IMG/VR virus record: IMGVR_UViG_2703718827_000002 | Location: 1 to 50,082 of that record | Length of the DNA stretch: 50,082 bases | DNA from: a virus | Lineage: Duplodnaviria > Heunggongvirae > Uroviricota > Caudoviricetes | Strand: one strand, 5' to 3' | Shown here: positions 2,590-22,980 of the stretch, piece by piece | Layout of the letters: each line of letters begins with the position of its first letter | Position numbering within the stretch: position 1 is the first letter of the stretch | Program-made: the position numbers and the translations under genes | Notes under the pieces: model-generated | Told to the model about the DNA's origin: nothing | Seen by the model: only the letters and a program-made list of their open reading frames with translations | Databases searched by the model: none

Positions 2590-2607
2590 TTTTTGAGGGG
2601 ATTAACG

Positions 2608-4719: not shown

Positions 4720-4853
4720 CCGAAGGTATTGATCAGCTTATTTATAACGACGAGTTTCCCGGGATTGCGTACAACAAATTTACCGCCAGTTCTTTGGAAG
4801 GAAAAGTGGAAACCCGATCGGCAGGATGCACAGCAAGGGTTACTGGCGAATAG
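4716..4853 (+). CDS. Small ORF (45 aa), possibly the displaced 5' portion of the HNH gene
   Basis: ATG overlaps upstream stop; ends 28 nt inside the HNH ORF in another frame. Confidence 0.25.
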   Translation: MTEGIDQLIYNDEFPGIAYNKFTASSLEGKVETRSAGCTARVTGE

Positions 4854-5209
4854 CTTGCGGCAAGAAGTGCTATCTCGCCCATCGGCTGGCTTGGTTCTTC
4901 TGTTATGGGGTTTGGCCCAAAGAGATTGACCATATCGACAATAACAAGCTCAACAACTCCATCGGCAACCTACGTGAAGTCACCCACCAACTTAATCAAT
5001 TAAATATGCCACTGCGCAGTAATAACACGAGCGGTGTGAAAGGGGTTAATTGGGATAAGCATCGTAAGCGGTGGCGCGCCAGGGTGATTATTAACGGCAA
5101 GTATTTCACTGCCGGACACTTCAAGGAAATTGCAGATGCCGAGGTGGCAATCAGGGCACTCCGCGAGCAAGTCCATGGAGAATTTGCAAATCATGGGGGC
5201 AAGTCATGA
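4826..5209 (+). CDS. HNH homing endonuclease with AP2-like DNA-binding domain
   Basis: AHRLAW and IDHIDNNKLNNSIGNLR HNH motifs followed by SGVKGVNWDKHRKRWRARVIINGKYF AP2-like segment; upstream in-frame sequence also looks HNH-like. Confidence 0.7.
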   Translation: MHSKGYWRIACGKKCYLAHRLAWFFCYGVWPKEIDHIDNNKLNNSIGNLREVTHQLNQLNMPLRSNNTSGVKGVNWDKHRKRWRARVIINGKYFTAGHFKEIADAEVAIRALREQVHGEFANHGGKS

Positions 5210-5424
5210 CATCTGAAACAGACAACGCCGTACGCGCCGCCTGCCGCCGCTGCACCGAGGAAATCCAGCAGGCCATGCGCAAGAAGCCAAAGCCAAACTG
5301 GAACGAAACGGTGCCTCCAATCATCAACAAGCATCACAAGAAAATTGAATCTCTGGGAGTTAGCCTCCTGGAGTTTGTCGTCAAAACTGGCCGCCTTAAC
5401 GGGCGGTTTGGAGCCGAACAATGA
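5206..5424 (+). CDS. Hypothetical phage protein (72 aa)
   Basis: ATG overlaps HNH stop; GGGGG RBS. Confidence 0.45.
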   Translation: MTSETDNAVRAACRRCTEEIQQAMRKKPKPNWNETVPPIINKHHKKIESLGVSLLEFVVKTGRLNGRFGAEQ

Positions 5425-5515
5425 CAACAAAATTCCCCGGGTCGCTAAGTCGGCCCTTTTTATTGCTGGCGTTCACCTTCAACCGAATTAACCGACAGTT
5501 CCGGGAGCATTGACC

Positions 5516-5734
5516 ATGGACATCATCGACACAGCAGCAGAGATTGAAGAGCTTCAGCGTAACGCTGCCCTTTCCGCTCACCGCCTCAACCGTAACGCCG
5601 TATCAGCTGAGCGTTGTGAAGAATGCGACGAACCAATTTCCGAGCCGCGGCGCTCTGCCGTTCCCGGTTGCCAGACGTGCGCGGATTGCCAATCCGTCAT
5701 CGAGCTGAAGAATAAGCAGAGGGGAATCCAGTGA
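5516..5734 (+). CDS. TraR/DksA-family C4 zinc-finger protein
   Basis: CEECDEPI...CQTCADCQ four-cysteine motif near C-terminus; ATG at 5516 with GGGAG RBS (track start 5510 is TTG). Confidence 0.7.
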   Translation: MDIIDTAAEIEELQRNAALSAHRLNRNAVSAERCEECDEPISEPRRSAVPGCQTCADCQSVIELKNKQRGIQ

Positions 5735-6402
5735 AAGAGCGCGGAATGATTTTTAACGGCGAGATGGTGCGCGCCATCCTCGACGGCCGGAAGACGCAGA
5801 CGCGGCGCATCATGAAAATTCAGCCGTCTGATGGCTTCCACCCAACGCATAACGGTTACGATCTGGATTTAAACGCACACTGGTACACGCCTGGCGTGGT
5901 CGATAAAAACGGATACCTGCAGCCTGCAAAGAAAGATGTGTTTGGCGTTGCAGATGAGAATGAAGGCTACACCTGCCCGTTCGGTGCCGTCGGCGATCGC
6001 ATCTGGGTGCGCGAAACGTGGGCTGAAGCTGGTGCTGGCGCGCCGGACCTGAAACTTTATCGCGCGGATTATCCTGAGCACCTTCCAACTCATTACGAGA
6101 ATGTGCCGCCGGCTGATGAAATACGCTGGACGCCTTCGATTCACATGCCGCGCTGGGCCAGTCGTCTAACTCTGGAGATTACCGGCGTGCGTGTTGAGCG
6201 ACTTAGAGATCTGAGTGAGGACGATGCAAAGTCAGAAGGCATTACGCCGCCTTCCGGCGGGGTTCTTCCCGGATGGGAATATCGCATTAACTTCCGTGAC
6301 CTTTGGATGAGCATCTACGGTGCCGACAACTGGGAAGCTAACCCATGGGTTTGGGTTATCGAATTTAAGGTGGTGCCCAATGTTCAGGATAATCCAGCCT
6401 AA
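5731..6402 (+). CDS. ASCH-domain (PUA-like) protein
   Basis: N-terminal MIFNGEMVRAILDGRKTQTRR and C-terminal PWVWVIEFK resemble the ASCH signature (as in E. coli YqfB); GTG at 5731 overlaps upstream stop with AGAGGGG RBS; ATG at 5746 is an alternative start. Confidence 0.5.
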   Translation: MKERGMIFNGEMVRAILDGRKTQTRRIMKIQPSDGFHPTHNGYDLDLNAHWYTPGVVDKNGYLQPAKKDVFGVADENEGYTCPFGAVGDRIWVRETWAEAGAGAPDLKLYRADYPEHLPTHYENVPPADEIRWTPSIHMPRWASRLTLEITGVRVERLRDLSEDDAKSEGITPPSGGVLPGWEYRINFRDLWMSIYGADNWEANPWVWVIEFKVVPNVQDNPA

Positions 6403-6619
6403 TACCTGGTACGCCGATGATTTCGGCGCGCCATGCAAAATCCTCCGCGCTACCCACGAAGTAATCCACTACATCCGCAACGGCCGCACCTGCATTGCCA
6501 GCATGGGCCGCTTTAATCAGGATTTCGAGCCGCTGACCAAAGCAGAGGCCGAGCGGATCGCTGAAGAAATCGAAACAGCAGAACACCTGAAGAAGCTGCG
6601 TGCCCATCGCGCGGCGTAA
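6380..6619 (+). CDS. Hypothetical phage protein (79 aa)
   Basis: ATG at 6380 with AAGGTGG RBS inside track ORF 6320..6619. Confidence 0.45.
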   Translation: MFRIIQPNTWYADDFGAPCKILRATHEVIHYIRNGRTCIASMGRFNQDFEPLTKAEAERIAEEIETAEHLKKLRAHRAA

Positions 6620-6627
6620 GGAGAACT

Positions 6628-6858
6628 ATGAGCACCATTCAGGACATCCTAAACCAGCTATCAACCCTGGTCACCGAGGCGCACAAAGTGGCGTGCTCAC
6701 TCGATATTGGTGATGAGCGAACCGAGGCTTTCGAGCTATACGAAGCGCTTCGTCGACTTCAGCGGCAGGGCGCCGCCGGAGAGATTCTCTCAGCAACCAA
6801 CCCTCTTCTCGCCTCGCCATATTACGACGAGGACTGGGACGAAGATGGAGACGACTGA
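6628..6858 (+). CDS. Hypothetical acidic protein (76 aa)
   Basis: AAGGAG RBS; Asp/Glu-rich C-terminus. Confidence 0.45.
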   Translation: MSTIQDILNQLSTLVTEAHKVACSLDIGDERTEAFELYEALRRLQRQGAAGEILSATNPLLASPYYDEDWDEDGDD

Positions 6859-6923
6859 CGCAACTGATAGCCAGTTATGAGCTGGCTATTGGGTGCGAAT
6901 GCACTGCCACGTTATCCCCCTTT

Positions 6924-6950
6924 CAGCCCTCCATTGCGAGGGCTTCTTTT
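6924..6950 (+). terminator. Rho-independent terminator
   Basis: AGCCCTC-cattgc-GAGGGCT hairpin followed by TCTTTTT. Confidence 0.6.
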
Positions 6951-6965
6951 TGCCTGGAGACAGCT

Positions 6966-7181
6966 ATGAATGACAGTATCCTGCTTACCAGTGACGTACT
7001 GGCTCGCTATAAGATTTCCCGGAGCACTCTGTATTTCTGGAGCACCCCGGAGCGAATGCCTGCTGGCTTCACCTGCCCTTTCCCCAAACCAACAATCCCC
7101 GGCAACCCAAAACGCTGGAGAGAGTCGGAGATCGTTTCGTGGGAAATGCAGGTCAACGCCTCTAAAGCTGATACCCAATAA
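6966..7181 (+). CDS. AlpA-family excisionase / phage regulatory protein
   Basis: 71 aa; LARYKISRSTLYFW helix-turn-helix typical of AlpA/Xis-like proteins; convergent with and overlapping the 3' end of the integrase. Confidence 0.6.
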   Translation: MNDSILLTSDVLARYKISRSTLYFWSTPERMPAGFTCPFPKPTIPGNPKRWRESEIVSWEMQVNASKADTQ

Positions 7182-8343
7182 TGCTCTGCAGGTGATTCTG
7201 CCAAATACCCAACCACTCGCGCTGGTCATCCATATAGTCGTGCAGGTTGTATCTGGCCATCACCCCACCCATCTGATGACCAAGCAGCTTTTCAATAACA
7301 TGCGGTGGCGCGCCAAGTTCTGACAACCTGGTTGCAACGGTGCGCCTCAGGTCATGCAGAGACCACTGTTTCATGTCTGTCTTTCTGATCACCTGCATGG
7401 AATAGGTCGAGACTAGGGCCTGAGTAGGTGGAATGTCTTCTTTATCTCGGAACTGAGCCGGTGTTAAAACGTGCTTAGTGACCGAACCTCTTTTATGCTC
7501 CTGAAGCAGCCTGATCGCCACTTCAGGCAATGCCCTCCTGATCGTCTTCCCTGTTTTGTAATCCTCAGCCGGTACCGTCCAGGTCTTTTCATTAAAGTTG
7601 TACCAGTCCCAGCGCGATTTCCTTATTTCTGCAGCCCTGCACCCAGTCAGGAGCATGAACCGTATAACAAGTTGCTGTGATGGAGGGAGCGCGAAAAGTG
7701 TATCCCAAACCACTTTGATCTCTTCGTCGGAGAGTCGCCTCTCCTTCATCTTCGCTGCAATACCAACGTCTGATCTGCGCAAGGATTCAAGCGGGTTGTT
7801 TTTAATTACCCCTCGGTTATGGCAGAACCGGAACGCGCGCTTCATTAATGACAGCATCTCACCAGTAATAACCGAACGCCCCATCTCGTCGAACACATCA
7901 AGCCAGTTAGCCTTGAACGTCTGATCAACCATCGCCCTGCCAATGCGCGGGCTAATGTGCTTCTGAAAGCTCCTGGTATTGGCATCGATTTTGATCAGAC
8001 CCTCGGGAATGCAGTAATGCTTTACCCAGTACTCATACGCCTGGTCAACCGTTAGCGCCTCTATCCTTTCTGCTTTCTCAACCAGAACCTTCTGGCGTGG
8101 ATCGTAACCCTCACTCAGCCAGGCGCGAAACTGCTGCCTGCGGTCTCTTGCCTGCGCTAATGAATAGGCTGGGTATTCACCTATACTGAGTTGCACCGGC
8201 TTACCCTGCCAGCGATAACGGTAGAAGAAAGTTACGCCACCAGTTATGCTTAACCTGACATTAAGCCCGTTTGAATCTGAGAGAACTTCCACACTCTCTC
8301 TGCGCTTACCAAGCGCCTTACGAAGTTTTGTATCTGTGAGCAT
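7162..8343 (-). CDS. int: Tyrosine integrase (P4-type)
   Basis: C-terminal catalytic region with HDLRRT...LLGH...Y; N-terminal MLTDTKLRKA typical of P4-like integrases; ATG at 8343 with AGGGG RBS (track start 8352 is GTG). Confidence 0.85.
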   Translation of the reverse strand: MLTDTKLRKALGKRRESVEVLSDSNGLNVRLSITGGVTFFYRYRWQGKPVQLSIGEYPAYSLAQARDRRQQFRAWLSEGYDPRQKVLVEKAERIEALTVDQAYEYWVKHYCIPEGLIKIDANTRSFQKHISPRIGRAMVDQTFKANWLDVFDEMGRSVITGEMLSLMKRAFRFCHNRGVIKNNPLESLRRSDVGIAAKMKERRLSDEEIKVVWDTLFALPPSQQLVIRFMLLTGCRAAEIRKSRWDWYNFNEKTWTVPAEDYKTGKTIRRALPEVAIRLLQEHKRGSVTKHVLTPAQFRDKEDIPPTQALVSTYSMQVIRKTDMKQWSLHDLRRTVATRLSELGAPPHVIEKLLGHQMGGVMARYNLHDYMDDQREWLGIWQNHLQSIIGYQL

Positions 8344-8645
8344 CGTGTACACCCCTGAGCCATGTACTCAGCAGTGTACACAAAACACGTAAATTGCAAC
8401 CATACAAAATAAAACACGTTAAAGAGTTATAAACAATGAAGTGAGTAACGGCGCGGTTTTGGCGGGAATAATTTTAAACGCAATAAAACACGATAAAGCA
8501 GAACTCGTTGAAGTATTATGCCTCAGGAAGATAAATCCTAACCAGACTGCCAGTCCTTCGGGGCTGGCGCTGTATCTCCTCTGTTCTCCTCAGGAAAATC
8601 ATAGTAGCATCGCGCCTGTGATTTTCCTTTTAAGTCGGTTTTACC

Positions 8646-9044
8646 ATGTCTACAACACATAACGTCCCTCAGGGCGATCTTGTTTTACGTACTTTAGCCA
8701 TGCCCGCCGATACCAATGCCAATGGTGACATCTTTGGTGGTTGGTTAATGTCACAAATGGATATTGGCGGCGCTATTCTGGCAAAAGAAATTGCCCACGG
8801 TCGCGTAGTGACTGTGCGGGTTGAAGGAATGACTTTCTTACGGCCGGTTGCGGTCGGCGATGTGGTGTGCTGCTATGCACGCTGTGTCCAGAAAGGGACG
8901 ACATCGGTCAGCATTAATATTGAAGTGTGGGTGAAAAAAGTAGCGTCTGAACCAATTGGGCAACGCTATAAAGCGACAGAAGCATTATTTAAGTATGTCG
9001 CGGTTGATCCTGAAGGAAAACCTCGCGCCTTACCTGTTGAGTAA
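8646..9044 (+). CDS. yciA: Acyl-CoA thioesterase YciA
   Basis: 132-aa product matches recalled E. coli YciA along its length. Confidence 0.85.
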   Translation: MSTTHNVPQGDLVLRTLAMPADTNANGDIFGGWLMSQMDIGGAILAKEIAHGRVVTVRVEGMTFLRPVAVGDVVCCYARCVQKGTTSVSINIEVWVKKVASEPIGQRYKATEALFKYVAVDPEGKPRALPVE

Positions 9045-9047
9045 TAG

Positions 9048-9080
9048 TCAAAAGCCTCCGGTCGGAGGCTTTTGACTTTC
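9048..9080. terminator. Bidirectional terminator between convergent yciA and tonB
   Basis: Long inverted repeat TCAAAAGCCTCCG / CGGAGGCTTTTGA with A/T runs on both sides. Confidence 0.7.
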
Positions 9081-9083
9081 TGC

Positions 9084-9803
9084 TTACTGAATTTCGGTGG
9101 TGCCGTTAATTTTAAACAGGATATTCACCACAATCCCACTGCCTGGCTTACCCGGCTCATAACGCCATCTGCGCATCGCATTTTTCACCTCACGCTCAAA
9201 CATGTTCGCAGGCTTGGCTGAGAGGATTTGTACGTTATCCACGCGACCATCCGGCGTAACGTCAAATTTAACTTTAACCTGCCCTTCAATGCGCAATGCC
9301 TGTGCTCGTGCCGGATACTGCGGCTGATTACGGCTTAATGCGCGTGGTCCTGAAGCCACACTGGTAACCGGCTTGCTGGTTGCAGCCGTTGCTGTACTTG
9401 ATGTCAGGCGTGCCGGTGCCGTATTTTCAAACGGTGATGCCGGACGCGACTCTACGGGTTTGACATCGCGTTTTGGCTGCTCCTGTACCTTTTTCACCGG
9501 CTTCGGTTTTGGCTTAGGTTTCGGCTTCGGCTTTTCAATGACCACCGGTGCTTCTTTTGGCGGTTCGGGGATCGGCTCAGGTTCCGGTTCTGGCTCTACC
9601 ACCGGCTCCGGTGGCGGCTGAACGGCTTGTGGCGGTTCGAGATCAGCAGGCGTAACCATCGTGACAGAAATCGGCTGCGCAGGCGCAGGTAGTTCAATAA
9701 CCTGATGTACCGAGGTATAGAGCAGACCCGCCACAACAGCACCATGAATGCAGACCGAAAGTAACGTCGGCCAGGGGAAGCGGCGAGGTAAATCAAGGGT
9801 CAT
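9084..9803 (-). CDS. tonB: TonB energy-transducing protein
   Basis: MTLDLPRRFPWPTLLSV..., (EP)n and (KP)n repeats, C-terminal domain; 239 aa from ATG at 9803 (track ORF extends upstream to 9854). Confidence 0.9.
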   Translation of the reverse strand: MTLDLPRRFPWPTLLSVCIHGAVVAGLLYTSVHQVIELPAPAQPISVTMVTPADLEPPQAVQPPPEPVVEPEPEPEPIPEPPKEAPVVIEKPKPKPKPKPKPVKKVQEQPKRDVKPVESRPASPFENTAPARLTSSTATAATSKPVTSVASGPRALSRNQPQYPARAQALRIEGQVKVKFDVTPDGRVDNVQILSAKPANMFEREVKNAMRRWRYEPGKPGSGIVVNILFKINGTTEIQ

Positions 9804-10026
9804 TGAAGTCATAATCATTTCAGTAGAAAAACCAGGTCTCGATTTTAAATGCAAATAGCAATCATATTCAATAAGGCAAGACGATCAGGATCAGTGAAAA
9901 TGTCATTTTTGGCGTAATTACCCTTACTTTATGCATGGCCTTAACAAAGACATCATCTTTCCGTTGCAGATCTTCGCCCTTTCAAATAACGTACTTTACA
10001 ACTTTCCCGAACAAGGAGTTGTGCCC

Positions 10027-10323
10027 GTGTTGTATGTTATTTACGCTCAAGACAAAGCTGATAGCCTCGAAAAACGCCTTTCCGTTCGTCCGGCACATTT
10101 AGCACGTTTACAGTTACTGCATGATGAAGGTCGTTTGTTGACAGCTGGTCCAATGCCAGCGGTAGACAGTAACGATCCAGGGGCTGCGGGATTTACTGGC
10201 TCAACCGTTATTGCTGAATTTGAATCGCTGGAAGCAGCTCAGGCCTGGGCCGATGCTGACCCGTACGTAGCGGCAGGAGTCTATGAACACGTTTCAGTGA
10301 AACCATTTAAGAAAGTGTTCTAA
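10027..10323 (+). CDS. yciI: YciI-like protein
   Basis: 98-aa product from GTG start matching the recalled yciI neighbour of tonB; track ORF 9931..10323 extends upstream. Confidence 0.7.
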
Positions 10324-10441: not shown

Positions 10442-10990
10442 TCAGCTAGCTGGAAACTTTTTATACAGAGTTGAGAGCCCTACTCCATACGTTTTTGATA
10501 CGCTTTGTCGTGATTCACCGGTTGCCATCCGCTCCCCCATTTCCCGCCATTGCTCATCCGTGAACTTAGGCCTGCGACCACCAACTCGCCCTTTTGCCCT
10601 GGCTACGGCCAGCCCTGCTAAGGTACGTTCGCTATTAAGATCAGATTCATATTGTGCTGCGGAAAGGATGTTACGAAAGTTATAGCGGCCGCTGGCTGTT
10701 TTGAGATCCACGCCATCGGTAATACTGCGGAAGTTGATACCCTTTTCCTGTAACTGCTGGAACATCAACAGCGCATGCAGAACGTTGCGGCCTATCCTGT
10801 CCAGCTTCCAGACCACCAGTTCATCCCCCGGCTGCATAGTGGCGATCAGCCGTTTTAGAACCGGCCGATTCGATTTCCTCCCGCTGGCATGCTCTTCAAA
10901 AATTTTCTCACAACCCGCTGACTTGAGCGCCGTTAGTTGCAATTCAGTGTCCTGGTGGTTTGTTGATACTCGGGCATAACCGTAAATCAT
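10442..10990 (-). CDS. Serine recombinase, Hin/Gin/Pin-type DNA invertase
   Basis: MIYGYARVSTNHQD...VVWKLDRIGR...C-terminal HTH GLSTLYKK; 182 aa; typical resolvase/invertase catalytic domain. Confidence 0.85.
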   Translation of the reverse strand: MIYGYARVSTNHQDTELQLTALKSAGCEKIFEEHASGRKSNRPVLKRLIATMQPGDELVVWKLDRIGRNVLHALLMFQQLQEKGINFRSITDGVDLKTASGRYNFRNILSAAQYESDLNSERTLAGLAVARAKGRVGGRRPKFTDEQWREMGERMATGESRQSVSKTYGVGLSTLYKKFPAS

Positions 10991-11194
10991 GAGTGCTTCT
11001 CCTGTTGTAAAAACAGGAGAAGAGGCGAAATATCACCTGATTCAGAAAAATATTTGAAAGGTTGGTTTGGGAGAAGCGGCAAAACGGGATGTGGGAACAG
11101 GGGAAAATCAGATACCGGATATGGCTTTTTTTGCCAGTGGTGATGGATGGATGAAATTACCCAACGGTAAAATCCTGCAATATGGTCGAGGTGC

Positions 11195-11418
11195 GGTTAC
11201 GCCGCCGAGGTATCGATACAATTGTGTTATGTGGGATCTCGACCAATATCGGTGTTGAATCCACCGCCCGCAATGCCTGGGAACTTGGCTTTAATCTGGT
11301 GATTGCCGAAGACGCCTGTAGTGCCGCCAGCGCCGAGCAACACAATAACAGCATTAATCATATCTACCCGCGCATCGCCCGTGTGCGTAGCGTGGAAGAG
11401 ATCCTTCACGCGTTATGA
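11195..11418 (+). pseudogene. yecD: 3' fragment of isochorismatase-family gene yecD
   Basis: Only the C-terminal ~75 codons ([18 protein letters not shown]...RVRSVEEIL) are present; the upstream in-frame sequence is unrelated; stop overlaps the yecE start. Confidence 0.6.
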
Positions 11419-12012: not shown

Positions 12013-12402
12013 TCACATCACCGGGCAATCATCAAACTCTGCATTCCTGGCGTCATTGATGATGTAAGTAAGCACCCCAAATACAGCGGGTGCAGAACTG
12101 TAACCGCCATCATCTACTGGCAGCGCCTCCTTTCTCCCGTTCTCCAGATTAACGAGGTGGGGTTGAGGATGTGTCCGATATCGCTTGATCCTAAATTCTC
12201 CGTCTATCGCGCAGATCAGCAGCGAGCCATCACAGGCTGAAAGTGAGGCATCAACAACAAGCAGCGCCCCCTGAATTATCCCTTCCCTGAAATGTGAACG
12301 CGATGCACGCATGAAATAAGTCGCTGCGGGCTGGCTGATTAACTGCTGATCGAGGGAGATTCGTGTTTCAACATAATCTGCAGCAGGTGAAGGAAAGCCC
12401 AT
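12013..12402 (-). CDS. UmuD'-like protein (HumD-like, lacks the UmuD N-terminal autocleavage segment)
   Basis: Begins MGFPSPAADYVE, matching the UmuD' N-terminus after the Cys24-Gly25 cleavage site; AAGGAG RBS before ATG 12402; no umuC partner in window. Confidence 0.65.
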   Translation of the reverse strand: MGFPSPAADYVETRISLDQQLISQPAATYFMRASRSHFREGIIQGALLVVDASLSACDGSLLICAIDGEFRIKRYRTHPQPHLVNLENGRKEALPVDDGGYSSAPAVFGVLTYIINDARNAEFDDCPVM

Positions 12403-12490
12403 GATCTGCACTCCTTTCACTGTTTTTATATACAGTAGTTTTAATGTGAGTGCAGATCAATGTGGAGACACCTATCAATACCGCCAGGAG

Positions 12491-12784
12491 TTAAAGGGCG
12501 GCGACAAAATACACGGCGGTGCAGGCCAGAACCGGAACGAGCCAGTCCAGCAGGCTGGGCAGATTCCATACGCGCAAGGAGAACCCGCCCCACCACGGCA
12601 TATTGGCCCGTTTTCCGCCGCCGAACTGTGCGATCCAGCGATACTCTGCCTGGGTGTGCTCGCGGGCTATAAACCACATGCAGCCTATCGCGCCGCCAGC
12701 ACCCCACATCCCAGAAACCAGTCCGACAGCGCATTGAAGGGTTACGGCTATGGCAGCGTGTACAAACGGAGAAAAATCAGCCAT
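12491..12784 (-). CDS. Small membrane protein (97 aa)
   Basis: ATG at 12784 overlaps the tailspike stop; hydrophobic segments with Gly/Trp-rich motif. Confidence 0.45.
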   Translation of the reverse strand: MADFSPFVHAAIAVTLQCAVGLVSGMWGAGGAIGCMWFIAREHTQAEYRWIAQFGGGKRANMPWWGGFSLRVWNLPSLLDWLVPVLACTAVYFVAAL

Positions 12785-15113
12785 GGATTGCTCCCTCCAG
12801 CGCCTCAACACGCTTTAACAACCGCGCATAATTGCGGCGCTGAAGCTCCGCCTCAAGCGCGAAGGCTTCTTCATAACGAATACCATATTTAGAACCAGCC
12901 TTCCTCGCGGGTGTGATAACTTCTGAATAAGCAGCACTTCCTGGCTGAACCAGATTCCCGTTAGCATCATAAAGATCTGGCGTTGCTTCATAATGCTGAA
13001 CTACTTCCCCCTGATCTCCCCATTCGTCATAGCAGGCGAATCCGAACTCGAAGGCATCAAGACCATAACGCGCAAATGCCTCAACAGCACGCTGGGCAAC
13101 AATGCCAAAATGCCACCTCGCGTCTTCACCTTTCTCTTCCACCCTGTCCAGAAATTTATATTGGCACCATTTTACTTCCGACCACGCATCCAGCATTGCG
13201 TCAGAAATCTCTAATGGGGAAGTTTTGGAACGTTCATCAGAAGTTACTGTGAAAGCGGTCTGGGTAAATCCACCGGACCATGCAGCGCCCGATACTCCGC
13301 AACTATAGGCGTTCGTTGTGGATGGCCGGATTGTTTTGGTGACCACCTCCCTGAATGTTGACTCCATGATCGCGTCATTTGCCACCCCGTCAGCACCACC
13401 GATAAAACGCAGAACTCCGCTGGCTGTCGTGGTATCCAGACCAGTATGCACACGCAACTGCCTGACCCCAGCCATGCCGGGTCTTGCGAGTTTAATATCT
13501 CCAGTAAGGAATGCGTTATTGTCAGAATCCAGCAACCAGTATTTGGTATTAGTGCCGTTATCAACGATGTCATTAGCCAGGGTCATGCCAATGCGCTGAT
13601 TACCAAATACCTGGTTGTTAACTGCACCGGTCGCTATCACTACACCGCGAGTTAATCCACTTGAAATAGGGTTAGAAATTGTATTATTGGATGCAGATCG
13701 TGTAGCTGACGTATTCCGTCTCAGTCGGGTATGAGTTGCATCTTTTGTGAACCCGGTGAGCAGGACATCATTCGATGAAAGGACGTTTTCATTCGAGCAA
13801 ATATCGAACGCAACGTACGGTTTGCTTTCATCCCCTGGCTTGTTATAGACGATACAGAAGTTATTGGCGATCTTGCAGTGGTTGCTTCCTAATCCTGTTC
13901 CCTCGCCAAGTTCAACCGCTGAAATTGAAGTGTTGAAGTGGTTACCGAGGACGAAAATCATATTCCCGCCGGTATCATGGGAAACGATACCTCGCTGTCC
14001 GGCAATGATATGGTTAAACGCCACCGTGACACCTTCGGCTCCACTTGTAAAATCGAGGAAGTCCAGGAAATCACTTGCGCAGCCGTTCGTGAAATTAATA
14101 TCCCTCGATTGGTTCGTTAATCGTATACAGCAATTGGTTGGTACAGCATCAAGGCCACTCATGGAGCAGTGATCCATAAACACCTGGCTTGCTTTATCCA
14201 GGTGCACACAGCAGTCCCAACCAAAGGCTCCAGTTTCGTCAGTAGCAAAAAGAACGTCCGTAAGTTTCAGCTGTTCGCCGTATTTAGCCGTGTGTGTCCC
14301 GGTAAATTTCAGCGCGGTAGCATTCCGGTTTCCCCTGGTGCGTAAAGACGTATTAACAATCCGCATCGCTTTGCGGGTGCCGGATATCGAGGAGTTATCG
14401 ACAACGATACCGAGCCCTGCTTCGAATATAATCCCTGTCTGGCCCTGCCCTAAGCCAAAGACATCTGAAATAAACGCAGTAAGGGTTATGTTGCTCGCAC
14501 AGGTATACAGACGCGATAATTTTACGCCGACCCCCATGGCTTTTGCTGCACTAAATGCGTCGATGAGAGCCTGGGTATCAGCAGCCGAAATGGTATCCAG
14601 AGCGCCGTACATTTCAGGCGATACGAACGGAGTTTCTTTGTAAACGTTTGACTGCCTGATCCCAACAAGCCCCGCACCACTGGACGCGGCCAGTTCCTGG
14701 CGCAAAGCTGCATCTCCAACGCTGACAAAATGAACAGCATCATTTGCCCAGGATGCTGCGTCATTACCAGTAGTGGTGTACGGGATGCTGGTTGCTGCAG
14801 TTAGTTTCCAGAGCTCATCCTGATAACGAATGAGCTCGTTATAGTCAGTGATTGTCAAAGGTCCATCGGTGTATTCACCAATAACCTTGTACCCCGAACT
14901 TTGAATAAAATTATTAAACCGCTGCTGCTGGTTGAGCAACTGAGCTGAAAACTCTTGCTCCATGCCCCAGAATGTTTTTCGACTTTTACCAAAACGATCC
15001 AACCAAATTAGCTGCGTAATATCGTTTACAGCAAAGTCCATGTTCTGGGCATTATCGAAAAGGTCCTTCGGATCCATGGACCCTATCGGGTTATTCGTGG
15101 CGTATGTGGTCAT
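12777..15113 (-). CDS. Tailspike / side tail fibre with C-terminal intramolecular chaperone (peptidase S74-like) domain
   Basis: C-terminal SDERSKTSPLEISDAMLDAW...HFGIVAQRAVEAF matches the S74 chaperone signature; central region has beta-helix-like repeats; ATG 15113 with GGAG RBS (track start 15128 sits in the terminator). Confidence 0.7.
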   Translation of the reverse strand: MTTYATNNPIGSMDPKDLFDNAQNMDFAVNDITQLIWLDRFGKSRKTFWGMEQEFSAQLLNQQQRFNNFIQSSGYKVIGEYTDGPLTITDYNELIRYQDELWKLTAATSIPYTTTGNDAASWANDAVHFVSVGDAALRQELAASSGAGLVGIRQSNVYKETPFVSPEMYGALDTISAADTQALIDAFSAAKAMGVGVKLSRLYTCASNITLTAFISDVFGLGQGQTGIIFEAGLGIVVDNSSISGTRKAMRIVNTSLRTRGNRNATALKFTGTHTAKYGEQLKLTDVLFATDETGAFGWDCCVHLDKASQVFMDHCSMSGLDAVPTNCCIRLTNQSRDINFTNGCASDFLDFLDFTSGAEGVTVAFNHIIAGQRGIVSHDTGGNMIFVLGNHFNTSISAVELGEGTGLGSNHCKIANNFCIVYNKPGDESKPYVAFDICSNENVLSSNDVLLTGFTKDATHTRLRRNTSATRSASNNTISNPISSGLTRGVVIATGAVNNQVFGNQRIGMTLANDIVDNGTNTKYWLLDSDNNAFLTGDIKLARPGMAGVRQLRVHTGLDTTTASGVLRFIGGADGVANDAIMESTFREVVTKTIRPSTTNAYSCGVSGAAWSGGFTQTAFTVTSDERSKTSPLEISDAMLDAWSEVKWCQYKFLDRVEEKGEDARWHFGIVAQRAVEAFARYGLDAFEFGFACYDEWGDQGEVVQHYEATPDLYDANGNLVQPGSAAYSEVITPARKAGSKYGIRYEEAFALEAELQRRNYARLLKRVEALEGAIHG

Positions 15114-15127
15114 GCTCGCTCCGGGCA

Positions 15128-15150
15128 TAAAAAAACCCGCCGAAGCGGGT
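15128..15150 (-). terminator. Rho-independent terminator between the J-like gene and the tailspike
   Basis: On - strand: CCCGC-TTCG-GCGGG followed by TTTTTTT. Confidence 0.65.
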
Positions 15151-15170: not shown

Positions 15171-18100
15171 TTAAGCGACGTTGCCGGGATAGGTAGCGTC
15201 GTCGTAGGCGTACTTTCCTGGGTGGTACTGGATGGCCGTCACCTGGCTGATACCGTCATTGCCCGGAGATATTTCCCCTATCAGTGCGTCGTACGGCACA
15301 CGCACAGACGAGCAGAACAGCAGGCGTGGCGGTTCAATGTACGCGTCATTCATCGCCCACAATTCCGGCTCCAGCGTGGAGCTGTACGGCACCGAGATAG
15401 TGAAGTCGTCAATGCGTGTCGGCACCAGCATGGCTGATGCCCTGCCGTCCTGGTGGCGAATAATCACGCGCGGGCTTTGGAACGACCAGTCCGGTGACTC
15501 GCTGAGCGTCAGCGTGATTTTGCTGCTGTCATACTTCATATCCGTAATCAGGCAGCTCAGCTGCTGACCGCCGGGGATATCGTCGGCCAGCACAATGCGA
15601 TCCATGAACTCATAACAAAGCGCATCCATCTCGGTTGAGGTGGTGTGCTGCAGGCGCTGCAGCTGGTAGCCCAGCAACCGGCGCATGCCGATGCGGTAGG
15701 CGCGGTCTTCATCCAGAACGCCATCCAGCGTGTAGCTCTCAATTTTCAGCGGTGTTGGATTGCCTGGCTGCCGGCACTGCACGGTTTCCTCTGCCCAGGT
15801 GGTGCCGTTGATATAGGTCACGTCCACGCCGTCGTAGTCGTCCTGCGACGGGGCTTTGAAAGCGGTCTGCAGCTCCTCGGTGGTTTCCTGCGGGGTGATC
15901 ATGCCGACCCAGGGTTTAATGCCTTCCCTGCCGGCAGAAGCCAGGCCGTCAGACAGCAGGAAATACCCCATCCCGGCGTTAGTGATTTGCTGCAGTACCT
16001 CGAGTGCTGATTTGCTCTCACCGCTCGCCCAGTCGAACTTCTCACCGCGTGGCGTCCAGTAGGTTTGCTCCAGCGCGTCAATCGCCGCCGTGTCAATCTG
16101 GCTGGTCGTGAACCCCAGTGACTCCAAGACGTGGTAAAGCGCACCACTGATGCTCCGCGCCGTTCTGCCGCCGCTGTAAATCCGGGTTGGCGTGACGCTA
16201 ATCCGGCGATCGGACATGGCCGCCAGGCGGTTCCCTGTCCGCACGGTCAGCGCCATGGTGGTGACGCCATCGTACTTTGTTGGGCGTTTGCTCAGCCTGG
16301 AGCGCAGCGCCTGCCAGAATACCTGGTCGCGAGTGCTGCCCCCTTTAACCGGTTCGGTGCGACGCATCCGGATCTCATACTGCCCGGGTGACACGTTGTA
16401 GCGATGTGTAAACCCAATCTGGTTCTCGGTGCTACGGGAATAGAACGGAGACTGTTGCTGCCAGGTGGTGGTGCCAACCTTGCGATACTGGATCACCAGG
16501 CGTACCGGCATGGAACGCTTATTCCCCTGGTCGGTATAACGCACCAGGCCGCTCTGGAAGTTGATGTTCACCTCGAATGCGTCCAGCGTTTCGCCGTCCG
16601 GGCAGGCCAGGAACGGACCAACCCATTCGTAATCGTCGCTGACACCAGTCACGGTCGCATCCAGCAGCGTACGCTCAGTGAAGCCAGGCCACGATGGATC
16701 TGGAGTCGTGATGGTCTCACCGCCCGGGCCGATGGTGACCGTAAGCCGCTCAACCGTGACCGTCTGGCTGTCCACATCGGTGATACGGAACTGATTGCCA
16801 GACAATCCCAGAGAAAACCGCTGAATGCCCTCCGGCAGTCCGGTGAATGGGGTGCCAGTGGCGCTGTTGTAGGCCAGGGTAATGTGCGCCCTTACCTCCG
16901 CCGTGCCGCCCGTTGATTTCACGCCAGCCGTATTGACCGGCGCGTCGCCGAACACAGCAACGGGTAACGGGCTGTTAGTGATGGAACCGCCAGCGTACGG
17001 GCTGCTGGATTCGACGATTTCCAGCCGCCCGCTGTTATCGCGCGCGACCAGGCCTGAGCCGGAGAGCTGCGAGGTGATCGAGGAAACCAGTCCCGACATG
17101 GTGACGTAATTGGTAACCAGCGATACCGGGTAGGTCGTGCCCTGCCAGCTGATGCTGAACGTCACAGGCGTGCTGCTGAAATCGTAGGTCGTCGGTGCGG
17201 CACTCGCGGTGATGCTGGCGGCGCTACCGCCCACACCCGGCACCGGCGGAACTCCCGGGGCGTAGCTGGCGATCACCAGATCGTAGTCGTTGCCGTTATA
17301 GCTCAGGGACACCGGCATTCCGACCACTGGCGCCAGTTCCTCTACCCCGCCATAAATCACGCTGTAACCGCCGGACGACACGACCGTATAAGAGTTCGGC
17401 GCCAGCACGGTGATCACCGTTCCAACGGTCCACGACGGCGGGATCTCCTCATCGCCAGAAGACGATACGTCAACCAGCGTGATGGAGTTCCCGGACACTA
17501 CCAGCGCATCAGCGATAATACTGACCGTCTCCGGGCCGCTTGAGCCCAGATCCAGCCCGGCGGTACCGGAGCCGGTATTCCCGACCTCTGGTGAGTTGAA
17601 CCAGTTTTCAGTGCGCGTGTCGCCGGAGACCGTGGCGCCTGGTGGGTAGATGGTGTAACGCACGTCGGTGCCGAAGGCGGAGATCGGCGTATTGCCGATC
17701 CGGATATCGGACTGGTTAATCACCATGTCGCCGACACCCACACACAGGAACATGCTGGTTTCCATGCTGGTCTCGTTGACGAACCGGCTCACCGGCTGCA
17801 CCACGTAATCAGGCCAGACGCGATATTTGCCGAAGATTTCCCGAATGGGGTCTCCCAGTTTCGCAGCGTTCGCTTTTGCCGGGTTGAGGTCAATCTGGTC
17901 ACCGCTGGCCGCCTGGGAACCGCCGCCGCCTGCCTGCGACATGGTACTCATCATGTAGATGCTGTATGCAGCAGAGGCGACGGCTACGCTGACGGCAACC
18001 CAGATAGCGATTTCTGCACCGGTACCGTAGGGCACCGGATACATCCTGACGTCGGTTTCTCGTTTGATGACGCACAGTGGCCACTCTGACGCCGGGACGG

Positions 18101-18188
18101 GAAGTCCATTGATTTCAACCGCGACCGGGTGCTGCTGATCCGGTGTCCAGCCCTTCACGTTCTGCGTAAACCAAGCGCTGATGGTCAT
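15171..18188 (-). CDS. Host-specificity protein J-like central tail fibre
   Basis: About 1000 aa, position downstream of K-like gene; Gly/Ser/Thr-rich central region; ATG 18188 avoids overlap with the upstream gene (track start 18332 is GTG). Confidence 0.7.
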   Translation of the reverse strand: MTISAWFTQNVKGWTPDQQHPVAVEINGLPVPASEWPLCVIKRETDVRMYPVPYGTGAEIAIWVAVSVAVASAAYSIYMMSTMSQAGGGGSQAASGDQIDLNPAKANAAKLGDPIREIFGKYRVWPDYVVQPVSRFVNETSMETSMFLCVGVGDMVINQSDIRIGNTPISAFGTDVRYTIYPPGATVSGDTRTENWFNSPEVGNTGSGTAGLDLGSSGPETVSIIADALVVSGNSITLVDVSSSGDEEIPPSWTVGTVITVLAPNSYTVVSSGGYSVIYGGVEELAPVVGMPVSLSYNGNDYDLVIASYAPGVPPVPGVGGSAASITASAAPTTYDFSSTPVTFSISWQGTTYPVSLVTNYVTMSGLVSSITSQLSGSGLVARDNSGRLEIVESSSPYAGGSITNSPLPVAVFGDAPVNTAGVKSTGGTAEVRAHITLAYNSATGTPFTGLPEGIQRFSLGLSGNQFRITDVDSQTVTVERLTVTIGPGGETITTPDPSWPGFTERTLLDATVTGVSDDYEWVGPFLACPDGETLDAFEVNINFQSGLVRYTDQGNKRSMPVRLVIQYRKVGTTTWQQQSPFYSRSTENQIGFTHRYNVSPGQYEIRMRRTEPVKGGSTRDQVFWQALRSRLSKRPTKYDGVTTMALTVRTGNRLAAMSDRRISVTPTRIYSGGRTARSISGALYHVLESLGFTTSQIDTAAIDALEQTYWTPRGEKFDWASGESKSALEVLQQITNAGMGYFLLSDGLASAGREGIKPWVGMITPQETTEELQTAFKAPSQDDYDGVDVTYINGTTWAEETVQCRQPGNPTPLKIESYTLDGVLDEDRAYRIGMRRLLGYQLQRLQHTTSTEMDALCYEFMDRIVLADDIPGGQQLSCLITDMKYDSSKITLTLSESPDWSFQSPRVIIRHQDGRASAMLVPTRIDDFTISVPYSSTLEPELWAMNDAYIEPPRLLFCSSVRVPYDALIGEISPGNDGISQVTAIQYHPGKYAYDDATYPGNVA

Positions 18189-18250
18189 CTTTTCATGTTG
18201 ATGCGTTTCCAGCGGTTCGCCCGGCAACCGGGATGGATAGATTCGGATCG

Positions 18251-18637
18251 TCACTGGTAATACTCCACACGGACAAAGCGGCGCGCAAACCGCGCCAGCG
18301 GCAGAAAAGTTACGTTGGTGCGGGGATTGCACTCTGCGGCACGCAGCTGGCCGTCAATCTCGACCACGATGGCAACGTGTGTCACCACTGAACCGGAATA
18401 ACAGGCGATACCCGCGCCCGGGACCGGTTCACATCGAGCCAGGCCAGCCATCAACCCCCGCGCCTCGCGGTCAAGTCCGTTATCATCCTTCGTGACTCCG
18501 GCGAAATCCGGCCACGGCACCAGGCCAAGATCGCGCCTGATTTCGTTAACGATGCCAAAGCAGTCCAGCGCGGGGTAAGCGCGTCCGCCCTTCTGCCACT
18601 CGACAGAACGGTATTTATCAGGATTGAACATGGTCAT
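18251..18637 (-). CDS. NlpC/P60-family tail assembly protein (gpK-like)
   Basis: DCFGIV catalytic-Cys motif and THVAIVV His motif; position between minor tail genes and J. Confidence 0.6.
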   Translation of the reverse strand: MTMFNPDKYRSVEWQKGGRAYPALDCFGIVNEIRRDLGLVPWPDFAGVTKDDNGLDREARGLMAGLARCEPVPGAGIACYSGSVVTHVAIVVEIDGQLRAAECNPRTNVTFLPLARFARRFVRVEYYQ

Positions 18638-18640
18638 TTC

Positions 18641-19129
18641 CTACTGGAGGTAGCGGAGTCCCGGGAATACAGGCAGCGTGTAGCGATAGCGCGGCCACGC
18701 GGTTTTCAGGATATTCAGGAATCCGGCAGTAATTTGCACCTCGGTCGCCTTCCAGTACCCGTCCTTAATCTGCAGAACGATCGGTGGTGCCGCCGGGTAG
18801 CTAAGGTCGGTCGATATGTACTGCCGCATTACCAGCGTGCCGTTGTTCAGGTTAGCCAGGGCGTTGCGTATCGCAGTGGAAACAATGCCGTCAATGTTGC
18901 TGATGGCGAACTGCAGATCCTGCGTGCCGTCTTTGTTCCTGGCTGGCAGCGCGACGGCCATGGCAGCCGCCTGGAATGTCACTGTCGCCCCCGCCTCTGT
19001 AGCAGCGGTGATATCTTCGAAGTTCTCGACCAGCCAGTAATCCTGCCCACCGACGGTAATCTGCAGCGTATTCAGTAGCGCCTCGCTGCCGCCACTGGCG
19101 TAAAGCCTGTTCAGGGTTGGACTGGTCAT
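18641..19129 (-). CDS. Minor tail protein (gpL-position)
   Basis: Position in tail-tip module; no motif recognised. Confidence 0.5.
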   Translation of the reverse strand: MTSPTLNRLYASGGSEALLNTLQITVGGQDYWLVENFEDITAATEAGATVTFQAAAMAVALPARNKDGTQDLQFAISNIDGIVSTAIRNALANLNNGTLVMRQYISTDLSYPAAPPIVLQIKDGYWKATEVQITAGFLNILKTAWPRYRYTLPVFPGLRYLQ

Positions 19130-19596
19130 GCTTCAGGCCACTCCTTGTTGAGCGCGTAATCGATAATGCTCTGCCCCACGATGAACTCAGGGAAATTACC
19201 CCAGCCAGCTGGCAGGATTGGACGATCCCAAAGCTCCAGTGTTGCCGTGAATTTCCAGAACCCCAACCCGAACAGCACCGGCCCGTCGTAGATATCCTTG
19301 AACCGGCAGACGTAGTCACCAACGCCCATTGGCGTGCGCATGCGCATGTTGAACCATGCTGCGCCGTCCGTAATAACATCCCGATACCACACCTCAAACA
19401 GCTGCGCCTGGGCATCAGTGAACACCCATGAAACACCCGCCTCAGTTGGAACCGAGGTGTATTTGCGGCGCTGCCGCGTGCGGCCGGATGTCATAGTGGA
19501 ACGCTGGAGGGGGCTTACCGGAGTGAATCCATGTCCGGAACGCTGAGGCATTGGCAGGTACTGGTGCGGGAAATCAATGGTGCTGCTGATCCCCAT
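19126..19596 (-). CDS. Minor tail protein (gpM-position)
   Basis: Immediately downstream of the tape measure gene; stop overlaps the next start. Confidence 0.5.
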   Translation of the reverse strand: MGISSTIDFPHQYLPMPQRSGHGFTPVSPLQRSTMTSGRTRQRRKYTSVPTEAGVSWVFTDAQAQLFEVWYRDVITDGAAWFNMRMRTPMGVGDYVCRFKDIYDGPVLFGLGFWKFTATLELWDRPILPAGWGNFPEFIVGQSIIDYALNKEWPEA

Positions 19597-19605: not shown

Positions 19606-22600
19606 TTATGTGAGGCGTTGACTGGTGTTGAAGTTGTTGGTCAGTGCGTTGGAGAGTTTTCCTTTGCCGCTGGCGACGTCACTGACAGCCATGGCATAGC
19701 CCTGCTGCGCCCCGCGCTTGACTGCGGCCTCGAGCATGGCCAACTGCTGCTCAGTCGGATCCCCGTTAACCTGAATGACCGGGCTGTAACTGAACGCCCC
19801 GCCACCACCGCCCATATCGCGGTTACTGATGACGCGACCGTTATCGCCGGGGATCATGTACTGCTTGCCGGTGCTGGCCTGGTAAATCTCTGGCTTACCT
19901 TTCTCGCCGACCTGATACAGGCCACCGGCTGATACCGGTCCGCCATTGTACCGCGCTCCCGCTATTGAAAGGGCCTGCGCCATGCCAACTGTTGAAGCTA
20001 TTCCCGCCTGTGCCGGCACTGCATTCGCGCCAGCAGTTGCAAGAGATGTCATTGCGGCTGCAGGGGCCATGGAAGCGGCGATTAGCTGCCCTTGCGCAAT
20101 AGCCATTCCAGAAGCGGCGGTCATGCCAGCCTGACCCATAATTACAGACTTCAACCACTCAACCCCCATCTGAACAAAGGAGTTGATGACGCTGTTAAGT
20201 ACCGTCGAGCCTAGCGACCGCATAGCTTCGCTGACAGACATGCTGCCAGTGATTATGCCAGTGAGGGCGTTGGAGGCGTTTCCAGCAAATGAATCAAACG
20301 CCGCGGCAGCTACTTCATATCCTGCATTTTGTTGTCGCCATATCTCCCACTGCGCCGCTATGCGCTGTTGCTCGTACTGAGTGTTAGCGGCATTCATCAG
20401 CTCAAGTCCGCGCTGAGTAATCTGCCCCTTCTGCGATTCAAACTGCTGGATTAGAGCCAACTCCTGCGCGTGCTGGTTAGCCAGCTGTTGGACAGGGTCA
20501 ATCTGCCCCCGAGCTTCCTGCATGGGGCTTACAGTTTGCTGAGCGCGTATCTTAGCCAGATTAACCTGGTGCTGAGCCTCCAGTTGCTCACTGGTCTGAT
20601 TGTACTGCTGCTGAGTGATTTTTTTGGCGGCCAGTGCAGTTTGCAGATCTTTAACATCCTGCTGGTAAGACGCATTCTCTCTGGCTTCAGGGAGCAGTTT
20701 TTCTGCCGCAGCCTGGGCTTTGAGGGCATTAGCCGTATCCCATATTTCTCCACGGTATTTACCGGCAAGAGCAATTTGCTCTTGGGTGGCTCCCTTACCT
20801 AGTGATTGCTGAGCCTGTAATACTGCCTGCTCCCGGCTTAACTCCTGCGTTGAGCCAGCAGCGAGCTCTGATTGCTGGCGCAGATTTTCAAGTTTTTGGT
20901 TTACCGATTCCTGCTGGTTAGCAAGTTTCTTAGCCTCAGATTCCGCTTCCTTGGTGGCCTTTTTGTTATTTTGCTGCGCTTGTTGAGCATCGAATTCAGC
21001 TGCTGCTCTGTCACGAGCAAGGTTAACATCCGCCTCTGATCCACCGAGTTTCCTAATGTCCTGCTCAGCCCTTAATTGCGCTCGCTTCCTGTCATTAAGC
21101 TCGCTCTGAAGTGTTACCTGATCCTGTAGCTTATCCAGATACTCCTGAACATCTTTCGGGCGTTCAATCATGAGGCTGCTGGAGTTGAATTTGTCTTTTG
21201 CCTTGGCCGCAAAATTAATCATATCTCCCAACTTGCTCATCATGCCGGCAGCAATTCCCGCTTCCTGCCCATCCCTGCGCAGCAAATCGATACCTTGCTT
21301 CATCGTTCCGTTTAGCGTAGCGCGGCCAATGTTAATGGCGTTTTGGGTCTGACTCAGTCTGTTCTGGGCCTTCTCCAGCTCAAGGGTAGCTATAGCTAGG
21401 TTATCCTGTGCGCCGCTAAGCGCCTCGGCAGCCTGCCGCCCTCTCGTTGTATTCGTACCCCAGTTTGCAATTTCTCGCTGCTGTCGCTGGACAGCCGATG
21501 TCGCGTCATTGAATTCCTTTTGTGCGTCTGATACCGCGTCACTTAATTCAGGCAGGCTTTGGCTTAGCTTTCCTATCGTTGCCGCCAGCTCTGTATGCGA
21601 CATCGTCTGGAATTTTGAGCTCAGATCGTTAACGCTATCTGCAAGGGCATTAGCGTCATTCCTGGCCTCTTTTGCGCGCTGTGAAAAGTAAAGGATTGCA
21701 CTAGCAGCAAGCATTGCCGCTCCGGCAGGCCCACCAATTAACCCGAGAGCCCTGCTAGCCAGGCTGGCACCAGATGAGAGAGCCATTTGAGCAGCCCTGT
21801 TTGCCGCCAGTGCTCGATTATAATTATCAACCGCACCGGCAGCCGCAACCCTGGCAACGGACAAGCGCTGTTCAGCTGCCGCAGCGTTGGTTTCGCTGAT
21901 AGCAGTAAGGCGCATCATTTCTGCGAGCCTTATCTCATCTAAGGCCCGTTGTTTTGCGACCGCTGCAGCCCTGAGGTCTGCCGCTGCTTTATTCGCGGAA
22001 GCCTGAGCTGCTAATGATTCTTCTGCTGAAAGCATGCGTGATGCGGCAGCTGCTTTGATTTTAGCCGCAGTAGCCATAGTTAAGGCGCCGACATACCGAC
22101 TCCCAAGAATAGCCGCGGCACCAGTCAGCAACGCGCTCAGTCCGCCAATATTCTCACTGATGGTGACCACTGCATCACTAAAAATTGCCGCGCCTGTTTT
22201 AACCGTAGAATTTTCACCGAAGAACTTAGTGATGTTATTGCCAGCAACCTGAAGAGCCTGGCTGATAGTCGTAGTGGTGTTGGCAAATTCAGCACCGATT
22301 AAACTCCCCTGGGAAAGCAGACCGTTAACCACAACATCTGTCGTTAGCTTGCCCTGTGCCGCCATGTTGCGCATCTGGCCGATGCTGACCCCCATAGAGT
22401 CAGCAAGGGCTACGATAAGGCGGTTACCCTGCTCGTTTACAGAGTTGAATTCCTCGCCGCGTAAAGCTCCAGAAGCAAGGCCCTGAGATAGCTGAATAAT
22501 CGCGTTCTCGGCCTCTTGCGCCGTGGCACCTGATACAACGAACCCTTGGTTTATAATTGTGGTTAACTTCGCCAGATCATCTGCGCTGGTCCCGTACTGC

Positions 22601-22980
22601 CTGGTTGCCCTTTCTAGTCTTGCGTAGAGGGATGCCGTTGCATCTAAACTACTGCGAGTTTGCTGAGTAATGTTGAAAACCCGCTCGGTTACATCGGCAA
22701 GTTGTTCTGATGGGCGAATAGAGTTTGATAATTTATTGTTAACAGTAGCCCACGCATCAGCGTATTCAGCCACCTGCTGAACTGACAATGCCGCGGTGAG
22801 CGCAACCGCTACACGTGACAGACTCGACATTGAACGCTCAGTAGTATCAATTGAGCGCGTTGTTTTATCAAAGCCGCGCTCCATCAGATCAAGGCGCTGA
22901 TTAACGCGCTGCTGAGCAGTAAGTAGCCCGCGCACATCCATTTCAATGTCGTAATAAATACCGCCAGCGTTCTCAGCCAT
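19606..22980 (-). CDS. Tail tape measure protein
   Basis: 1124 aa, Ala/Gln-rich coiled-coil-like composition, Gly-rich C-terminal region, position between chaperone and tail tip genes. Confidence 0.85.
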   Translation of the reverse strand: MAENAGGIYYDIEMDVRGLLTAQQRVNQRLDLMERGFDKTTRSIDTTERSMSSLSRVAVALTAALSVQQVAEYADAWATVNNKLSNSIRPSEQLADVTERVFNITQQTRSSLDATASLYARLERATRQYGTSADDLAKLTTIINQGFVVSGATAQEAENAIIQLSQGLASGALRGEEFNSVNEQGNRLIVALADSMGVSIGQMRNMAAQGKLTTDVVVNGLLSQGSLIGAEFANTTTTISQALQVAGNNITKFFGENSTVKTGAAIFSDAVVTISENIGGLSALLTGAAAILGSRYVGALTMATAAKIKAAAASRMLSAEESLAAQASANKAAADLRAAAVAKQRALDEIRLAEMMRLTAISETNAAAAEQRLSVARVAAAGAVDNYNRALAANRAAQMALSSGASLASRALGLIGGPAGAAMLAASAILYFSQRAKEARNDANALADSVNDLSSKFQTMSHTELAATIGKLSQSLPELSDAVSDAQKEFNDATSAVQRQQREIANWGTNTTRGRQAAEALSGAQDNLAIATLELEKAQNRLSQTQNAINIGRATLNGTMKQGIDLLRRDGQEAGIAAGMMSKLGDMINFAAKAKDKFNSSSLMIERPKDVQEYLDKLQDQVTLQSELNDRKRAQLRAEQDIRKLGGSEADVNLARDRAAAEFDAQQAQQNNKKATKEAESEAKKLANQQESVNQKLENLRQQSELAAGSTQELSREQAVLQAQQSLGKGATQEQIALAGKYRGEIWDTANALKAQAAAEKLLPEARENASYQQDVKDLQTALAAKKITQQQYNQTSEQLEAQHQVNLAKIRAQQTVSPMQEARGQIDPVQQLANQHAQELALIQQFESQKGQITQRGLELMNAANTQYEQQRIAAQWEIWRQQNAGYEVAAAAFDSFAGNASNALTGIITGSMSVSEAMRSLGSTVLNSVINSFVQMGVEWLKSVIMGQAGMTAASGMAIAQGQLIAASMAPAAAMTSLATAGANAVPAQAGIASTVGMAQALSIAGARYNGGPVSAGGLYQVGEKGKPEIYQASTGKQYMIPGDNGRVISNRDMGGGGGAFSYSPVIQVNGDPTEQQLAMLEAAVKRGAQQGYAMAVSDVASGKGKLSNALTNNFNTSQRLT

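Follow-up and report, generated by a model that had tools for sequence, protein, structure and literature searches.

A probable four-module tailspike with a rare beta-helix body and a predicted self-cleaving chaperone domain in a siphoviral prophage of Escherichia coli

We analysed a window of 50,082 bp that is the entire contig LONM01000010.1 (IMG/VR virus record IMGVR_UViG_2703718827_000002), and we focused on one minus-strand gene within it, at 12777..15113. Its product is very probably the tailspike with which a lambdoid-type siphovirus, resident in Escherichia coli as a prophage, binds its receptor. The protein comprises four modules, which are an N-terminal tail anchor, a probably sugar-cutting beta-helix, a neck, and a chaperone domain at the C-terminus that is predicted to cleave itself off. 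This reading draws on the observed identities and fold of the domains, on conserved motifs, on genomic position, and on modular mosaicism. Residues are numbered on the protein of 778 amino acids (aa) that starts at ATG 15113; the numbering of a 783-aa open reading frame (ORF) at the same locus runs 5 higher and is named where it is used. The gene and its parts, all on the minus strand, are as follows.

12777..15113, minus strand: tailspike gene, an intact ORF of 778 aa plus stop
14694..15113, minus strand: tail-anchor module of two helices and a small beta domain (aa 1-~140)
14688-14723, minus strand: motif SVGDAALRQELA (aa 131-142), the closing element of the anchor module, at the anchor/body junction
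14628..14693, minus strand: linker or hinge at the module boundary (aa ~141-162), with a predicted local distance difference test score (pLDDT) below 50 at residues 146-164 of the 783-aa numbering
13449..14627, minus strand: right-handed parallel beta-helix body, a putative depolymerase or receptor-binding domain (aa 163-555)
13242..13448, minus strand: neck, presumed to be a trimeric triple-beta-helix stalk (aa 556-624), ending in ...WSGGFTQTAFTVT
12780..13241, minus strand: intramolecular chaperone (Peptidase_S74) domain at the extreme C-terminus (aa 625-778)
13224..13241, minus strand: SDERSK (aa 625-630, read from the translation of 13224-13253), with putative nucleophile Ser625 and putative general base Lys630

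Results

The body is a divergent pectate-lyase-like beta-helix

The first-pass annotation, made from the sequence alone, had proposed a beta-helix-like body, and structure prediction and fold search agreed on a right-handed three-sheet beta-helix. The AlphaFold2 model of the spike, a monomer computed from an alignment of 48 sequences, had a mean pLDDT of 81.9 and was mostly above 90 over residues 168-560 (783-aa numbering), where it is all-beta with short strands. The highest fold search values were obtained with the AlgE4 A-module (35.2), the Dettilon tailspike (34.5), PfbA (33.6), a GH87 glucanase (33.4), the K5A lyase (33.2), and phi29 gp12 (31.3). Dozens more phage depolymerase tailspikes followed below them, and Foldseek was concordant. 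The repeats rich in Asn, Gly, Thr, and Ser that had been described for the central region stand as a matter of composition, as these four residues make up 36% of the body and 43% of the neck vs 17% of the chaperone domain, but there were no true sequence repeats.

The superfamily of the body was traced through its relatives. A hidden Markov model search for pectate-lyase-like and S74 domains had been recommended; it recovered S74 but gave no direct pectate-lyase match, and the link to that superfamily runs only via distant relatives and the fold. The spike itself stayed below threshold on models of the PF12708 (Pect-lyase_RHGA_epim) and AlgE4 A-module type, and its close body relatives likewise reached no Pfam beta-helix model. 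A body-only profile searched against 1.84 billion cluster representatives retrieved 67 proteins at an expectation value (E) <=1e-3, 13 of them at E <=1e-30, and extended to proteins P0136 (E 2e-57), P0140, and P0148 (both E 1e-16 to 1e-23). Because these distant relatives carry PF12708 (Rhamnogalacturonase A/epimerase, pectate-lyase-like; E 1e-19 to 2e-16), NosD, and Beta_helix, the body belongs to the pectate-lyase-like beta-helix superfamily, of which it is a divergent member. Among the polar residues that survive across distant relatives is an Asn ladder (N384, N391, N411, N418, and N448). Q281, E360, H368, H392, and H412 also survive across highly divergent relatives, and this conservation marks them as a candidate active or binding site.

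We regard the body as probably enzymatic, and several results have to be set against this view. All of its fold matches were only 10-15% identical, and PfbA, one of the top matches, is a non-enzymatic adhesin. Pfam applied to the whole spike at E <=1 returned S74 alone and nothing for the body, NCBIfam returned nothing for the body either, and sequence and profile searches of the PDB with the body gave just sub-threshold matches to NosD and a mannuronan epimerase. The body may be a hydrolase, a lyase, or a mere binder. The spike might be imagined as a non-enzymatic adhesin, in which the beta-helix binds a surface glycan or protein without cutting it and the chaperone domain still serves as a folding module. 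We consider such an adhesin unlikely, as most tailspike-type beta-helices among the matches are enzymes and the retention of E360, H368, H392, H412, and Q281 across very divergent relatives suggests an active site.

The C-terminal chaperone domain is predicted to cleave itself off

The segment SDERSK...GIVAQ at the C-terminus had been read as the peptidase S74 intramolecular chaperone, and this was borne out. Pfam PF13884 (Peptidase_S74) matched residues 630-689 of the 783-aa numbering (E 3.9e-12; 46.7 bits vs a gathering score of 22), and sequence searches of the PDB carried the match to the very C-terminus. The tail spike 9vvr was matched at E 3.7e-47, the chaperone domain of phi29 gp12 (3gud) at E 6.8e-26, and that of endoNF (3gw6) at E 4e-23; the chain of 3gud starts at the aligned Ser. 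Foldseek returned 3gw6 and 3gud as the best matches for the domain. The spike has WHFGIVAQ downstream of SDERSK, and its S-x4-K dyad, Ser625/Lys630, aligned with A911 (S911A) and K916 of 3gw6. Both residues of the dyad were at least 90% conserved among 48 aligned homologs.

In phage T5 pb1, the Thr1263-Ser1264 bond is cut by Ser1264 activated by Lys1269, and an Arg of the neighbouring chain senses correct trimer folding (PMC4690869). Since Ser625 and Lys630 are present and so well conserved, the scissile bond expected by analogy with Thr1263-Ser1264 and Lys1269 of pb1 (PMC4690869) is Thr624-Ser625. A cut at this bond would be expected to leave a mature spike of ~624 aa and a released domain of 154 aa.

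Immediately before the chaperone domain lie 33 residues, TIRPSTTNAYSCGVSGAAWSGGFTQTAFTVTS, whose counterpart in the K5A lyase chain 2x3h is its final 33 residues (E 1.3e-4). The motif FTQTAFTVT/S of the spike is identical to the C-terminal end of that chain. The neck also matches the pre-chaperone stalk of endoNF 3gw6. In the model, the pLDDT of the neck was low at residues 598-631 of the 783-aa numbering, as would be expected of an intertwined trimer predicted as a monomer.

One feature argues against self-cleavage. At the aligned position of the Arg in the K5A lyase, 9vvr, and endoNF, the spike has Ala610-Ala611, as would suit a chaperone domain that lacks the canonical Arg sensor and is retained as a C-terminal cap. 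Retention is nevertheless improbable, because the Ser/Lys dyad and the TVTS/DE motif are strictly kept and an Arg is available nearby. Arg596, 14 residues upstream of the aligned sensor position, is conserved, homologs without it have Arg610, and the Arg of the AS12 gp42 spike (6eu4) is likewise displaced. The apparent alternation of Arg596 and Arg610 in homologs suggests that the sensor has been relocated to Arg596, not lost. By analogy, self-cleavage of the spike is likely despite the missing Arg at the sensor position of T5 pb1 and K1F.

The N-terminal anchor probably places the spike on a siphoviral tail

Residues 1-~150 of the spike match residues 1-145 of tailspike gp13 from the Shigella siphophage Sf11 (9occ_G), at E 6.2e-9 when the single sequence was searched and at E 1.8e-20 when a profile was used, and PHROG matches cover aa 6-165. 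In the cryo-electron microscopy structure of Sf11, the N-terminal helices of gp13 form a bundle together with an adaptor helix that belongs to the distal tail protein (PMC12724387). Six gp13 trimers per tail are seated on this protein, and the hinge of gp13 lies near residue 162 (PMC12724387). The low-confidence hinge of our spike model coincides with that position. The following genes of the tail module are relevant here.

19606-22980: tape measure gene
19126..19596, minus strand: candidate distal tail protein of 156 aa, immediately downstream of the tape measure gene
15171-18254: TipJ-family gene, directly upstream of the tailspike gene

The gene order is tape measure, distal-tail-protein-like, DUF1833, CHAP-like, TipJ, and spike, and the spike ends the siphoviral tail module. 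By analogy with Sf11, the 156-aa candidate may be the docking partner of the spike N-terminus. The candidate matched residues 5-85 of the Sf11 distal tail protein gp17 only weakly (E 0.031), which weakens this assignment.

The motif SVGDAALRQELA at the end of the anchor recurs in unrelated spikes, as VSVGDAALRSQIS in 9vvr and LSVGDGSLRADLS in Sf11 gp13, and also in the prophage of E. coli MB20. Similarity between mosaic relatives, including MB20, stops at this motif or at the linker. Judged from these alignments, the site is likely a recombination joint.

Modules of the spike are shuffled and its body is rare

Identities calculated region by region showed that the anchor, body, neck, and chaperone domain have independent histories. 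Among bodies 42-99% identical to that of the spike, some had the same siphoviral anchor and others had, in its place, the P22 head-binding domain (PF09008), the TSP1/Gp66 N-terminal domain (PF18668), a tail-collar fibre N-terminus (PF12571), or a T7 tail-fibre N-terminus (PF03906), so that at least five different anchor modules are joined to relatives of this body. Conversely, the MB20 prophage has a 79%-identical anchor and an unrelated body, and at the spike slot related prophages have either an SGNH/GDSL hydrolase or another body.

The body is sparsely distributed. A tblastn search with it against 50,697 phage genomes gave no match, and no body relatives were found in 185,579 species-representative genomes (one per species) by a single-sequence and then a profile scan. 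By megablast, none of 5,426 complete E. coli genomes contained the full gene; they matched only the end that encodes the N-terminal anchor (query bases 1914-2352, ~19%), at 77-80% identity. Four loci in IMG/VR, and no more, carry the body. At least 20 contigs, draft or metagenomic, encode the identical 778-aa protein, its cluster at 90% identity has 13 members, and NCBI already lists the exact protein under the name 'tail fiber domain-containing protein [Escherichia coli]'.

Source names of body relatives include E. coli, Enterobacter hormaechei, Leclercia adecarboxylata, and Aeromonas veronii. The E. hormaechei protein WP_306675495.1 (P0001) is a full-length spike with 96% identity (99% in the body and 100% in the neck), and A. 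veronii has a 74%-identical body. These matches across genera could reflect either very recent transfer of the prophage or cassette, or hosts that have a surface glycan in common.

The tailspike gene is intact and starts at 15113

The extent of 12777-15113 that had been assigned to the gene proved exact. In the ORF list, the longest minus-strand frame at the locus is 12777..15128, which corresponds to 783 aa. We rejected its ATG at 15128 in favour of 15113, because it falls within the T-tract that follows a terminator-like hairpin and a relative has ACG there, while the Met at 15113 has an equivalent in relatives and is preceded by GGAG. The equivalent Met is the start of the annotated orthologue in E. 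coli MB20, and gene calls made independently on other contigs also give 778 aa. Two signals lie upstream of the start.

15119..15122, minus strand: ribosome-binding site GGAG, 5 nucleotides upstream of ATG 15113 and invariant in three relatives
15129..15150, minus strand: intrinsic-terminator-like hairpin ACCCGC-TTCG-GCGGGT followed by T7, found by terminator scan in the interval that separates the TipJ stop from the tailspike start

The hairpin is kept in MB20 and in IMG/VR locus L005, including relatives whose spike bodies differ, and it could attenuate read-through or mark a boundary of cassette exchange. That the gene is a decaying, functionless remnant in a defective prophage, as the odd contig structure and the fragments at the prophage end (a side-tail-fibre-like piece and a truncated isochorismatase gene) might indicate, is very improbable, given an intact ORF with a ribosome-binding site, the recurrence of the identical protein and its cluster described above, and a structural module that is intact in the window from terminase to tail tip.

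Neighbouring genes and contig structure

A 97-aa hydrophobic, membrane-like ORF at 12491-12784 (minus strand) overlaps the tailspike stop by 8 nucleotides. It belongs to phrog_1443, whose function is unknown, and had no match in Pfam or NCBIfam. The ORF keeps its place immediately behind the spike gene also when the spike body is an unrelated one, as in MB20, and its product may be a lysogenic-conversion or exclusion protein. At the prophage end, 12013-12420 (minus strand) encodes a translesion polymerase subunit of the HumD family (phage P1-type UmuD'; NF051876, E 1e-65). No umuC-like partner was noticed near it, and the MB20 relative has just a 79-aa fragment of the gene. Farther on, a Pin-like serine DNA invertase gene (10442-10990, minus strand) adjoins a short side-tail-fibre-like fragment (11067-11258), which continues into the final 78 codons of an isochorismatase-family gene (11182-11418). 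The region 10442-11418, between yciI and the tailspike prophage, looks like remnants of another prophage or of an invertible tail-fibre segment.

The left end of the window (1-8400) carries SSAP, exonuclease, and integrase (7162-8352) genes, and the right end (45761-50082) carries DnaB-like, O-like, cII, and cI (49105-49899) genes. The two ends resemble complementary halves of one lambdoid genome, with chromosomal yciA-tonB-yciI (8646-10323) between them. We checked for a circular-contig artefact and found no terminal overlap of the contig, no internal repeat, and no DNA common to the prophage halves. Other strains carry a related prophage either between yciB and yciA or next to yciI, in the latter case with yciA-yciB undisturbed. 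This arrangement suggests a pair of related prophages on either side of tonB, or a repeat that collapsed in the assembly.

Discussion

The architecture of anchor, beta-helix, and self-cleaving chaperone is a textbook one, and the assembly, docking, and action of the spike may be pictured as follows. The chaperone domains of three chains would come together and serve as a template for the triple-beta-helix neck and for the beta-helix trimer, after which autoproteolysis by Ser625/Lys630 at Thr624-Ser625 would remove them. Mature trimers would then dock through their N-terminal helices on the ring of the distal tail protein, as in Sf11. The beta-helix would bind, and most likely cleave, a surface polysaccharide, presumably O-antigen or capsule, and this cleavage would let the TipJ tip of the virion reach the outer membrane.

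Different known systems are closest to different modules of the spike. By architecture, the nearest is the K5 lyase of K5A and K1-5 (KflA, 2x3h), which has a beta-helix, an identical neck motif, and a chaperone domain. However, the bodies are only ~15% identical, the anchor of the K5A lyase is podoviral whereas that of the spike is siphoviral, and the residue at the aligned sensor position is Arg in the lyase but Ala in the spike. By anchor, the nearest is Sf11 gp13 (9occ; PMC12724387), which is homologous over aa 1-~150, has its hinge near residue 160, and is encoded next to a baseplate-hub/TipJ-type gene in a siphovirus, as is the spike described here. The likeness ends with the N-terminal anchor, as gp13 has 585 aa and an Sf6-like endorhamnosidase body, and the Sf11 distal tail protein has 457 aa compared with 156 aa for the candidate in the window.

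By chaperone domain, the closest proteins include endoNF of phage K1F, 9vvr, and the phi29 pre-neck appendage gp12 (3gq7/3suc/3gud). EndoNF (3gw6) resembles the spike in an S74 chaperone with aligned Ser and Lys and in a beta-helical stalk before it, but its body is a beta-propeller sialidase and that of the spike is a beta-helix. We also rejected an endosialidase reading of the spike, because the PF12219/GH58 catalytic domain was absent from it in Pfam, the body is a beta-helix, and only the chaperone is shared. The phi29 gp12 protein differs in that it is a podovirus appendage directed to a host envelope with teichoic acid, and its N-terminus is unrelated to that of the spike.

A more speculative view, to which we give rather little weight, is that this body founds a small depolymerase lineage with its own active-site chemistry, possibly built on Glu360 and a three-rung His ladder (H368/H392/H412), and acting on a glycan common to certain strains of E. 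coli, Enterobacter, Leclercia, and Aeromonas, with the relocated sensor R596 as a further trait.

Tailspike bodies set the host range of phages and are a source of enzymes that degrade capsule or O-antigen for typing and therapy. The mild novelty of the spike described here lies in how rare its body is, in the conserved constellation of Glu and His, and in the displaced Arg, and it leaves the general concept unchanged. Its body, absent from every cultured phage genome searched and found on at least five anchors, offers a clean example of module shuffling. Being intact, confidently modelled, and rare, the body is a candidate for expression and substrate screening.

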